38,741 nt of DNA from Clostridia bacterium (GTDB taxonomy: Bacteria; Bacillota; Clostridia; UMGS1883; UMGS1540). A program made the translations under genes and the position numbers. The DNA lies in NCBI GenBank assembly GCA_045533905.1, contig JAZSIR010000004.1:1-38741 (forward strand), written 5' to 3'. The first letter of the stretch is position 1; every line of letters begins with the position of its first letter. The notes beneath the pieces are model-generated. The model saw only the letters and a program-made list of their open reading frames with translations. It made no database searches and was not told the origin of the DNA. This document shows positions 12,950-17,555 of the stretch, in pieces.

Positions 12950-12978
12950 TTGACAAAATAGGGAAAACTGTGTATACT
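12950..12978 (+). promoter_or_regulatory. Sigma-A promoter for the Val T-box operon
   Basis: TTGACA-17 bp-TATACT. Confidence 0.75.
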
Positions 12979-12995
12979 ATAACAAATGCATATGG

Positions 12996-13265
12996 CTAAA
13001 GGCAATGAAGAGAAGGAGTACCTACACCGGAAACGTATAGAGAGAAGCGGATGGTGGAAGCGCTTTCGCGGAAGGGTAGGGAAGTAGTCTCGGAGCTGCG
13101 GACCGAAAAAAGCATTCAGCTTTGAGTAGACTTCGACGGAAACCTAACCGTAAAATAGGGTGCGGCATATAAAGTGCCGAATAAGGCCTCGGCGCGTGAG
13201 CGTCAGGCGAAGTTAGGTGGTACCACGAGTCATTCGTCCTAATACTTAGGGTGAATGGCTTTTTT
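12996..13265 (+). ncRNA. T-box riboswitch, Val specifier
   Basis: GGAGTA, AGAGAG box, GGTGGAA, specifier loop GAA-GTA-G (GUA at 13084-13086) closed by GAGA/TCTC, stem II AGTA, T-box AGTTAGGTGGTACCACG, terminator AGTCATTCGTCCTAA...TTAGGGTGAATGGCT-TTTTT. Confidence 0.9.
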
Positions 13266-13293
13266 GTTTATCCGATACGAAAGGAAGAAAAAA

Positions 13294-14925
13294 ATGGAAC
13301 TTATTAAACGTTTCTTAAAACGCACCGAATTTGAAAGCTATGCGGATTTTCGCGAGAACTTCCATCTGGAGGTCCCCGAAAAATTCGAATTTGCGAGAGA
13401 CGTCGTCGATGCATGGGCCGAGGCAGAACCTGAAAAACGCGCCCTCGTGTACTGCGATGATGAAGGCTTTTCCAAAACCTTTACCTTCTCTGAAATTTCT
13501 ACGCTTTCGAAAAAGGCGGCCACATATTTTACAGAAATGGGCATAAAGAGGGGTGACCGCGTGCTCACGCTCCTTCGTCGCCGCTATGAATACTGGATTA
13601 TTGCCACGGCTCTCCACAGAATCGGCGCCGTTGTCATTCCCGCTTCCATTCAGCTTCGTGCAAAAGATATTGACTATCGCCTCGTGCAGGCCGATGCTAA
13701 ATGCGTTATTGCGATAAACGATGAATTTGTAGTACAGCAAGTAGGGAGCCTTCGCACAAAAGTCGGCGTAATTTTCGTCGGCGATGAAAAAGTAGAAGGA
13801 TATCCGTACTTTAATGGCGAATATGAGTCCTGCGCTTTGTATGACGCGCCCGACGAAGGCAAAAATGAAGACCCGATGGTCATTTACTTTACCTCGGGCA
13901 CAACAGGCTACCCGAAAATGGCGGTGCATAACCGCACATACCCACTCGGGCACATTATGACGGCGAGATACATGCAGTGCGTACAAAATAACGGTCTCCA
14001 TTTAACGCAGGCCGATAGCGGCTGGGCAAAATTTGGCTGGGGCAATATTTACGGGCAATGGATTTGCGGCAGCGCCATTTTGGGGTATGACCCCATCCGC
14101 TTTAGTCCCGAACACCTTATGGAGCATATGCGCGAATTTAAACCTACTTCCGTTTGCATTCCGCCCACGATGTACCGTTTCCTACTCAAGGCGGGCGTCG
14201 GGCGTGAGCATCTCGAATCGGTAAAATGGTTTGCTACAGCCGGTGAACCTTTAAGCGGCGAAGTAAACAGCGCCTTCTATGACCTTTGCGGAAAGTATAT
14301 CCACGAAGGGTATGGGCAGAGCGAAGGCACGCCGATTACCTGCTCTTTTGAGTGGATGGACATTCGCCCCTCTTCGATGGGCAAGCCGTCTCCGCTTTAT
14401 GACGTAGCGCTTATCGATAAAGACGGCAACCGCTGCGCACCGGGTGATGAAGGCGAAGTCGTTATGTTTATTCACGATGGCCAGAAGGTAGGCCTTCTCG
14501 ATTATTATTATCAAGACGGCGAACGAATTGACCCCTTGGAAGACGGCATTTATCATACGGGCGACATTGCGTATGAGGATGAGGATGGCTACTACTGGTA
14601 CGTGGGCAGAAATGACGATATGATTAAATGCTCGGGCTACCGCATCGGGCCTTTCGAAATCGAAAGCATATTAAATACGCACGAAGCCGTAAAGGAATGC
14701 GCCATTGTAGGGCGTCCCGATGAAATCCGCGGCCAGATTGTATGCGCCGTTGTGGTACTGACACCGGGATTTTCCCCGTCGGACGAGCTTACGAAGGAAC
14801 TGCAAACCTACGTAAAGAAAATGACGGCACCGTACAAATATCCCCGAAAGATTGAATATGTTCCGGAACTTCCGAAAACCACTTCAGGCAAAATTACGAG
14901 AAATGCGCTTCGCAGCACGAAATAG
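13294..14925 (+). CDS. AMP-forming medium/branched-chain acyl-CoA synthetase (ANL superfamily)
   Basis: [70 protein letters not shown] favours ATG 13294. Confidence 0.9.
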
Positions 14926-14939
14926 AAAGGATTTTAAAG

Positions 14940-17555
14940 ATGAGAAACATTGATAAAACCTATGAACCGCAAAAAGTAGAGAAAAAGCTGTATCAAAGAT
15001 GGCAGGAAAACGGGTATTTCAAGGCTTCGCCCGATAAGAATAAGAAGCCGTTCTGTATCGTAATTCCCCCTCCGAACGTAACGGGGCAGCTGCACATGGG
15101 CCACGCGCTTGATGAAACGCTGCAGGATATTTTAATCCGTTGGCGCCGTATGCAGGGATACAGCGCACTCTGGGTGCCGGGAACCGACCATGCCGGTATT
15201 GCCACGCAGATTAAGGTAGAAGAAAACCTTCGTAAAACAGAAGGTCTCACTCGTCACGACCTCGGCCGTGAAAAGTTTTTGGAGCGCGTATGGGACTGGA
15301 AGAACCAGTACGGTGATAGAATTATCAACCAGCTCAAAAGCCTTGGTAGTTCTTGCGACTGGTCGCGCGAGCGCTTTACGATGGACGAAGGCTGCTCCCG
15401 TGCCGTGCGTGAAGTTTTCGTAAGCCTCTATGAAAAAGGTTTAATTTATAAGGGTAACCGCATTATTAACTGGTGCCCCAAGTGCCGCACCGCGCTTTCG
15501 GACGCTGAGGTAGAATACAGCGAACAGGGCGGTCATTTCTGGCATATCCGTTACCCCATCAAAGGGGAAGACGGCTTTGTGGAAATTGCCACCACCCGTC
15601 CCGAAACGCTTCTCGGCGATACCGCTGTTGCGGTAAATCCGGAGGACGAACGCTACACAGCCCTCGTTGGAAAAATGCTCGTTTTGCCGCTTGTAGGCCG
15701 CGAAATTCCGGTAGTTGCAGACGATTATGTAGATAAAGAATTCGGTACCGGTGCCGTTAAAATCACACCGGCACACGACCCGAACGACTTTGAGGTAGGT
15801 CTTCGCCATAACCTCGAACAGATTCGCGTTTTGGATGATGATGCCAAGATTTCCTTCCCCGGAAAATACCAGGGCATGGACCGCTATGAGGCACGCCGCG
15901 CGATGGTGGAGGATCTTGAAAAAGAAGGTCTCCTCATTAAAACCGTGGAACATAGCCATAACGTGGGCGCTTGCTACCGCTGCGGCACTACGGTAGAACC
16001 TTTAACAAGCGAACAATGGTTTGTAAAAATGGAGCCGCTTGCAAAAGAAGCGATGCGCGTTGTAGAGGACGGCACGATTTCCTTCGTTCCGAACCGCTTC
16101 TCCAAAACATATATGAACTGGATGGAAAATGTGCATGACTGGTGCATTTCCCGTCAGCTTTGGTGGGGCCACCGCATTCCGGCGTTTTACTGCGAAGATT
16201 GCGGCAAGATGATTGTATCGCGCGAGGATATCGATACATGTCCCTGCGGCGGCAAAATGCGCCAGGAGGACGATGTTCTTGATACGTGGTTTAGCTCCGC
16301 GCTTTGGCCGTTCTCTACGCTCGGTTGGCCGGATAAGACGGAAGAACTCGATTACTATTACCCCACAAGCGTTCTCGTAACGGGATACGATATTATCTTC
16401 TTCTGGGTAGCCCGTATGATTTTCTCCGGTATGGAGCACATGGGTAAAGAACCCTTCAAACACGTATTTTTGCACGGTCTTGTGCGTGACAGTCAGGGAC
16501 GCAAAATGTCGAAATCTCTCGGCAACGGCATCGATCCCCTCGAAGTTATCGAGGAATATGGTGCCGACGCTCTCCGCTTTACGCTTGCCACGGGTAACTC
16601 CCCCGGTAACGATATGCGTTTCTACATGGAGCGCGTAGAAGCCAGCCGCAACTTTGCCAATAAGCTTTGGAACGCGGCACGCTTCGTTCTTATGAATCTC
16701 GATATTGAAAAAGTAGAGCTTCCGAAAAATCCGCAGATGGAAGATAAGTGGATTTTGTCGAAGTACAATACACTCGTAAAAGAAGTTACGGATAATCTCG
16801 AACACTACGAAATCGGCGTTGCGCTCGGCAAGGTGTATGACTTTATCTGGGATATTTACTGTGACTGGTACATTGAGCTTACAAAGCCGCGTCTTTACGA
16901 TGCAGAATGCCCCACAAGAGAAGATGCCCAGAATACGCTTTCGTTTGTCCTCGCCGGCACATTAAAGCTTTTGCATCCGTTTATGCCGTTTGTAACCGAT
17001 GAAATCTATTCGGCACTCCCGACGGGCGACGACAGCATTATGATTTCTGATTGGCCCGTGGCAAATGATGCCCTTTCCTTCCCGAAGGAAGAAGCAGAAA
17101 TGGAAATCATCTGCGATGCCATCCGCGGCATCCGTAATGCAAGAGCAGAAATGCAGATTCCGCCGTCAAAGCGCGCAAATCTGTATATCGTAACAGAAGC
17201 GAGTGACCTTTTTGCAGGCAGTGCAGAGTTCTTTAAAAAGCTTGCAGGCGCATCTGAAGTCAGCATCCTTCCCGAGAAGAACGAACTGTGCGAAAAGGCA
17301 CTTACGGTTGTTGTAGACCGCGCCATGCTCTTTGTACCTACCGATGAACTTGTGGATAAGGAAAAGGAAATGGCCCGTCTTTTGAAAGAAAAGGCAAACC
17401 TCGAAAACGAGATAAAGAGAACAAGCGGCAAGCTTTCGAACGAAGGCTTCCTCGCGAAGGCACCGGCAAAGCTTGTAGAAGAAGAAAAGGCCAAACAGGC
17501 AAAGTACGAAGAAATGTTAGAAAAGGTGTTGGCGAGCATTGAAGCATTCAACTGA
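14940..17555 (+). CDS. valS: Valyl-tRNA synthetase
   Basis: [27 protein letters not shown] editing domain, [18 protein letters not shown]-terminal coiled coil. Confidence 0.99.

Follow-up and report, generated by a model that had tools for sequence, protein, structure and literature searches.

The window analysed here comprises 38,741 nucleotides of a Clostridia bacterium (assembly GCA_045533905.1, contig JAZSIR010000004.1, hereafter contig C8 of a 1.57-Mb genome that is 95.5% complete), and carries a valine-specific T-box leader whose first gene encodes an AMP-forming acyl-coenzyme A (CoA) synthetase of the MacS type, followed directly by valS, the gene for valyl-tRNA synthetase. From the anatomy of this leader, its distribution among relatives and the genes that accompany it, we propose that valine starvation very probably induces the activation of isobutyrate, which would feed a reductive carboxylation leading to valine. 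That rumen and gut anaerobes require branched volatile fatty acids has long been known from physiology, with reductive carboxylation as the proposed route, and isotope work on rumen bacteria in the 1960s reportedly traced the reductive carboxylation of these acids. No paper assigning the activating genes of this route, or their regulation, was found in the literature searched. The same chemistry has been proposed for isoleucine in Methanobrevibacter ruminantium (PMC2812497).

Results

A complete valine T-box precedes the synthetase

The elements of this operon lie on the forward strand. A putative sigma-A-type promoter at 12950-12978 (-35 TTGACA, 17 nt, -10 TATACT) matches 11 of 12 consensus positions and is the best-scoring of seven promoter-like sites, where chance would provide 5.0. 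It is followed at 12996-13244 by a T-box leader, running from stem I to the antiterminator, which matches RF00230 over its full length (model positions 1-219; 102.7 bits, above the gathering score of 93; E 9.4e-22). The specifier of the model aligns with GUA, a valine codon, at 13084-13086, and the UGGU bulge of the antiterminator (13213-13242, from the structure line of RF00230) is complementary to a tRNA ending in A73-CCA. Both pairings are possible, since the genome encodes a tRNA-Val(TAC) on contig C1 with discriminator A and the end A-CCA. An intrinsic terminator at 13227-13269, consisting of a 16-pair stem (13227-13261) and a T run, with a folding z-score of -2.6, overlaps the antiterminator in the mutually exclusive arrangement of transcriptional T-boxes.

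The synthetase gene (13294-14925; 543 aa) comes first, and valS (14940-17555; PRK05729, 1282 bits; TIGR00422 over its cut-off) starts 14 nt past its stop. Between them no terminator-like site was found, and the fold of the junction does not stand out from that of shuffled sequence (z 0.05). An earlier note, made from the letters of this DNA alone, had described just this arrangement - promoter, complete GUA T-box and terminator, then the synthetase as first gene with valS 14 nt on and no terminator between - and each element stood up, including the specifier, which the note had put forward for checking with Infernal against RF00230. A longer open reading frame for the synthetase, from 13255, was set aside: its start lies inside the terminator and lacks a ribosome-binding site, whereas 13294 is preceded by AAGGAAG. 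We also considered an internal valS promoter at 14528-14556 (10 of 12 positions) and regard it as probably incidental, as it overlies conserved codons; the equivalent site scores 5-10 in 11 valS-linked loci, and also 10 in one stand-alone homologue.

Distribution assigns the leader to the synthetase

Valine T-boxes commonly head valS, for instance CD3256 of C. difficile (PMC11477304), and valS is present in this operon; the leader could thus be an ordinary valS leader, with the synthetase a passenger inserted between the two. The distribution of the leader makes this highly improbable. A T-box lies upstream of 12 of 12 orthologues at 67% identity or above among 40 relatives, and in a tree of 89 homologues the window protein falls in a clade of 37 non-fused proteins (fusions are considered below), of which 33 have a valine T-box: 12 GUA leaders with valS behind the synthetase, 19 GUA leaders without it (in one case the contig breaks off within the synthetase gene) and two GUC leaders. 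The latter (L068 and L069) were read by eye and left out of a 130-row tree; the four remaining members comprise one with truncated upstream DNA and three in which no T-box was found. Two further stand-alone GUA cases from a later sample bring to 23 the homologues with a valine T-box and no valS seen behind. The carriers of these stand-alone copies include metagenome-assembled genomes titled Acutalibacteraceae, Desulforamulus and Marvinbryantia, and also the cultured Desulforamulus aeronauticus DSM 10349 (L072). At the DNA level the window leader matches nine of nine stand-alone leaders tested (66-85% identity in the matched stretches) and none of five control T-box loci.

Conversely, valS of other genera shows no such leader: of 26 matches, 19 loci were fetched, 18 of them with sufficient upstream DNA, and the T-box profile found a T-box in none of these 18, nor did an Rfam rescan at E up to 0.01 find one ahead of valS in the 15 it covered. 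Indeed, the 12 valS-linked proteins form one clade, with a support of 100 in the Shimodaira-Hasegawa-like approximate likelihood ratio test, which is confined to two sister genera and nested among stand-alone proteins. The reading of an ordinary valS leader is thereby largely refuted. Because the valS-linked proteins form a single clade, stand-alone cassettes abound and the other valS genes examined are without a T-box, it is valS that is probably the passenger, a newcomer to an operon whose leader belongs to the synthetase. T-box and synthetase together look like a portable cassette, and on the simplest reading of the distribution this cassette would have landed once ahead of valS-folC, in the ancestor of the two sister genera. 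The linkage of T-box and synthetase, whose conservation the earlier note had left to be seen, spans many families and is independent of valS. One carrier, Desulforamulus aquiferis (L102:5001-6632), has an intact valine T-box with a synthetase match split over more than one frame.

A MacS-type synthetase

The synthetase scores over the cut-offs of PF00501 (AMP-binding) and PF13193 (AMP-binding_C), and its P-loop, YHTGD and catalytic Lys motifs align with those of MacS (PDB 3ETC). A likeness to MacS had been guessed by eye, rightly so: 3ETC is the best PDB match both by sequence (E 1.4e-173) and by fold (template modelling score 0.89, with 46% identity in the structural alignment). With an offset of 23, the chain numbering of 3ETC reproduces the Trp259 and YHTGD 431-435 of the MacS study (PMC10455477) and the Lys256 of the PDB title. 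On this numbering, window Trp249 corresponds to MacS Trp259, which is reported to be critical in binding the substrate (PMC10455477), and window Ala245 corresponds to MacS Gly255, one helical turn away. The window enzyme also has Gly at the position of Trp414/416 in acetyl-CoA synthetase (Acs), in a GYGQ segment that aligns with GFGQ of MacS; this replacement, together with the alternate Trp259, is described as a feature of MacS, which prefers 2-methylbutyrate and forms adenylates from C3 to C8 acids (PMC10455477).

Among NCBIfam models the best is MbcS (NF047394; 401.8 bits, short of the cut-off of 850). Its Staphylococcus aureus representative activates 2-methylbutyrate and isobutyrate, and hardly isovalerate (PMC10026030). 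An identity as the acetyl-CoA synthetase AcsA was rejected, as both models score under their cut-offs (TIGR02188, 244 against 725 bits; PRK04319, 337 against 729 bits) and Gly stands where Acs has its pocket Trp.

One residue follows the specifier codon

The earlier note had suggested a survey for T-box specifiers that covary with acyl-pocket residues. Covariation with valine and isoleucine specifiers is seen at a single residue, in the substrate-binding helix. We assembled 198 distinct homologues, 132 of them with a T-box directly upstream, and called the specifiers, in 14 leaders with any base permitted behind the codon. At position 245, all 77 GUA and both GUC cases have Ala (79/79 for valine), and all 53 AUC (isoleucine) cases have Gly; among the fused proteins this is the only column that separates the two groups completely. 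Once the pattern had been seen in the first set, 100 more regions were added, hand-picked for family spread from two class-wide lists of 150 matches each, and 84 of the 132 T-box-headed homologues come from loci fetched after that point. The 66 homologues left out of the count, for which no T-box was found or the upstream DNA was truncated, have Ala (35), Gly (25), Leu (3) or Val (1), with two uncalled. The tree on which specifier changes were followed was built with FastTree without some eight columns around the site. If the residue lines the pocket, an Ala, with its added methyl on the enzyme, would be expected to fit a substrate with one methylene fewer, and this is the direction that the valine and isoleucine specifiers suggest.

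Could the enzyme instead take some other acid or a very broad range of acids (propionate, butyrate, C4 and C5 branched acids), or serve valine catabolism or CoA recycling, with a valine control that is only loosely matched? The breadth of adenylate formation by MacS (PMC10455477) speaks for the former, as does the fact that the non-fused clade differs from the fused valine enzymes at several nearby positions. Against it, one residue changes with the specifier in separate lineages, and valine/Ala and isoleucine/Gly copies are kept side by side in several genomes (L229, L230, L234, L235, L237, L239, L243 and L258), a coexistence that implies a division of substrates. As to catabolism, Vor enzymes are reversible, yet induction by valine shortage would have the wrong sign, and AMP-forming ligases run towards the thioester. 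Altogether we consider such alternatives unlikely, and activation of isobutyrate for valine synthesis remains our reading.

The eight loci just named contain tandem fusions, each of an XRE, a cupin and a synthetase portion and each with its own T-box, and several adjoin vorB. Position 245 is Leu or Val in L177-L179 and L216, whose enzymes may take a smaller acid; in the first three, leuA-like, ligase, ilvE, vor, XRE and synthetase genes form one cluster. In L019-L024 and L186-L202, Ala-type synthetases lie behind a separate XRE-cupin gene and have no T-box, and so appear to be under a protein regulator in place of a riboswitch.

Candidate genes for the rest of a valine route

A ferredoxin-vorB-beta-gamma operon lies on contig C11 (vorB, 574.9 bits against a cut-off of 399) and ilvE on contig C16 (427 against 250 bits). 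In contrast, ilvD and ilvB were not found in the window genome, and ilvC gave nothing beyond two 20-bit matches to ketol-acid reductoisomerase, which we discounted since their N-termini, by eye, resemble other Rossmann dehydrogenases; each of the three families was detected in 14 of 14 control genomes. The earlier note had asked for a check of vor and ilvE and of the absence of ilvBCD, and the gene content agrees with its reading. The genome has one Iso_dh gene (388 aa) and one aconitase-family gene (641 aa), which by eye we read as icd and acn, and neither BrnQ nor a LivK-type protein was found in it.

Across 41 relatives, which are kin and not independent, ilvD is missing in 27, of which 26 have vorB, and present in 14, of which four have vorB. 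All of 39 further genomes chosen for a valine-T-box synthetase possess a vorB-type gene. In one relative (L164) a GUA T-box directly heads an XRE-synthetase-vor arrangement. Among Actinomycetota, mostly titled Eggerthellaceae (L086-L097, L101 and L104), a Gly-type synthetase lies directly before the vor operon, without a T-box, and four of these loci have an Ala-type copy after it.

The chief use of isobutyryl-CoA could also be to prime FabH for the synthesis of branched membrane fatty acids, as with S. aureus MbcS, the best model for our enzyme and one with a lipid role (PMC10026030). We judge this very unlikely: no match to the FabH family was found in the window genome, and only two of 11 valS-linked relatives have one; moreover, tRNA charging reports on valine for translation, and not on the need for lipid. 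The pattern expected of a lipid role is instead seen in genus g13, where FabH and ilvD occur in six of six genomes and vorB in one of six, and where the Gly-type homologues have no T-box in the five examined.

Valine, isoleucine and leucine T-boxes in one genome

The window genome has six T-boxes, of which three head CoA-ligase operons, with valine, isoleucine and leucine specifiers. On contig C3, an AUC (isoleucine) T-box precedes a helix-turn-helix (XRE)-cupin-synthetase fusion at 14156-16456, which shares about 46% identity with the window enzyme, and a CUC (leucine) T-box precedes a LeuA-like gene and then a fusion of a xylose-isomerase-like TIM barrel with a CoA ligase (L036:12010-13398 and 9552-12008). 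The former likely serves 2-methylbutyrate to isoleucine, and the latter pair, isovalerate to leucine. The LeuA-like protein keeps its allosteric domain, whilst the RDGEQ and HxH catalytic motifs are missing; we posit that it may act as a pseudoenzyme that senses leucine and exerts control over an isovalerate-CoA ligase. L082, L165 and L175 contain this gene pair as well, again with a CUC leader. The leucine and isoleucine T-boxes of contig C3 stand back to back, with divergent promoters about 140 nt apart (L036:13465-14077).

The other three T-boxes precede pheST (UUC), aspS (AAC) and a TrpB-like gene (UGG), the last two specifiers being read by eye. The first is an ordinary phenylalanine T-box before pheS-pheT in the window (5886-6104; 130.3 bits); the others (L040:2094-3779 and L041, G000 C1) are a tryptophan T-box before a TrpB-like pyridoxal-phosphate enzyme and an asparagine T-box before aspS and gatCAB-looking genes. 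A run on contig C22 (L039:3079-8642) joins a sodium:solute symporter, iorAB, a phenylacetate-CoA ligase-like gene and a small ACT-like gene, a candidate operon for the salvage of aromatic acids to amino acids; no T-box was found at this run.

Neighbouring genes

The gene folC (17539-18852; TIGR01499) overlaps the end of valS and is probably co-transcribed with it; for this reason the transcript probably extends past 17555, and the order synthetase-valS-folC is common to the 11 valS-linked loci that reach far enough. Close behind valS, folC, rsmD and pfkA follow one another with no strong terminator (17539-20359), so that folate and glycolytic genes (folC and pfkA) may share the valine-controlled transcript, or use internal promoters. 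Elsewhere in the window, an AraC regulator is divergent from genes for a galactonate dehydratase, a PHP-like hydrolase and a 2-keto-3-deoxy-6-phosphogluconate-type aldolase (22113-26801), and a tRNA-Leu, a MATE transporter and a large serine recombinase (Ccr-like, below cut-off) lie near the contig end (35028-38357), possibly the edge of an integrated element.

Discussion

The switching of T-boxes by uncharged tRNA is an established mechanism, and from the anatomy of this leader we can sketch how it would operate here. Under valine shortage, GUA and the UGGU bulge would be bound by uncharged tRNA-Val(UAC), which would hold the antiterminator and allow read-through; the synthetase, whose family is clear and whose substrate is predicted, would then use ATP and CoA to turn isobutyrate into isobutyryl-CoA. 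The VorB-type 2-oxoacid:ferredoxin oxidoreductase of contig C11, if it runs in the reductive direction, would carboxylate this to 2-oxoisovalerate, which IlvE of contig C16 would transaminate to valine. Finally, ValS from the same transcript would charge tRNA-Val and switch the leader off.

Several observations weigh against this proposal. In the non-fused clade, three of the 36 members that could be evaluated (L075-L077) have no detectable T-box. The specifier changes only three times on the tree, and although the residue follows in three of three independent pairs, so few switches do not reach significance (p = 0.25). That MacS Gly255 lines the acyl pocket is our assumption, and the AlphaFold model of the window enzyme, which confirms the fold and not the pocket, is weak at residues 241-250 (predicted local distance difference test score of 53). 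The synthetase also fails to reach the curated cut-off of any listed NCBIfam synthetase model, and its selectivity may be lower than the residue pattern suggests, because C4 and C5 branched acids are both substrates of MbcS. Neither the vor operon nor ilvE of the window genome has a T-box, and peptide uptake could be an alternative supply of valine. Lastly, an IlvD-family match, strong in four cases, occurs in 11 of the 39 genomes with a valine-T-box synthetase (against 59 of 100 class-sample genomes, searched at a stricter threshold than the 39), and for this reason de novo synthesis is usually but not always missing, its loss being a trend and no rule.

Perhaps these pieces belong to a larger picture, to which we lean by a narrow measure. 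Many gut and rumen Clostridia would have replaced the de novo synthesis of branched-chain amino acids by a salvage regulon that senses tRNA and comprises three dedicated CoA ligases (valine from isobutyrate, isoleucine from 2-methylbutyrate, leucine from isovalerate), in which the codon and a single Gly/Ala pocket switch changed together several times, such that the specifier predicts the substrate; here the valine cassette would also have taken over valS, and a catalytically dead LeuA would sense leucine for the third arm.

The locus names a testable enzyme and regulator for branched-acid salvage, and the one-residue rule (Ala for valine, Gly for isoleucine) could annotate a synthetase group present in 220 of 399 sampled Clostridia genomes. 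If true, predictions of auxotrophy would be revised, as genomes without ilvBCD may need acids and not amino acids. Moreover, by being captured downstream of a metabolic cassette, an aminoacyl-tRNA synthetase gene has apparently come under T-box control, the opposite of what is usually assumed. We found no description of T-box control of an acyl-CoA synthetase or of branched-acid salvage in the literature searched, although key T-box surveys were outside its reach and a prior mention is possible; a term look-up in main-text passages of four T-box and riboswitch surveys (PMC3766115, PMC7778990, PMC11477304 and PMC2494555), with the supplements of the first and last, gave no CoA-ligase target.

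How, then, does this system compare with those already known? It shares with the transcriptional T-boxes of Firmicutes (RF00230), such as the valine leaders of valS and the ilv-leu leaders, a full model match, a specifier loop, a UGGN bulge, an overlapping terminator and a valS in the transcript, but differs in that the conserved first gene encodes an acyl-CoA synthetase, to which valS is a local addition. With MacS of Methanosarcina acetivorans (MacsMa, 3ETC), the enzyme has in common the equivalents of Trp259, Lys256 and YHTGD, whereas Gly255 is replaced by Ala and is kept as Gly in the isoleucine-T-box paralogue of the same genome; MacS, for its part, is archaeal, has no T-box and prefers 2-methylbutyrate. 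MbcS of S. aureus is the top NCBIfam model (NF047394), but it feeds FabH and lipids, in contrast to a genome in which FabH was not found and an enzyme that scores 401.8 against the 850 bits of the model. Finally, the reductive carboxylation of branched volatile fatty acids by rumen anaerobes and methanogens is the same chemistry as we propose here, for which this locus now offers candidate genes, a regulator that senses tRNA and a residue predicted to set specificity.

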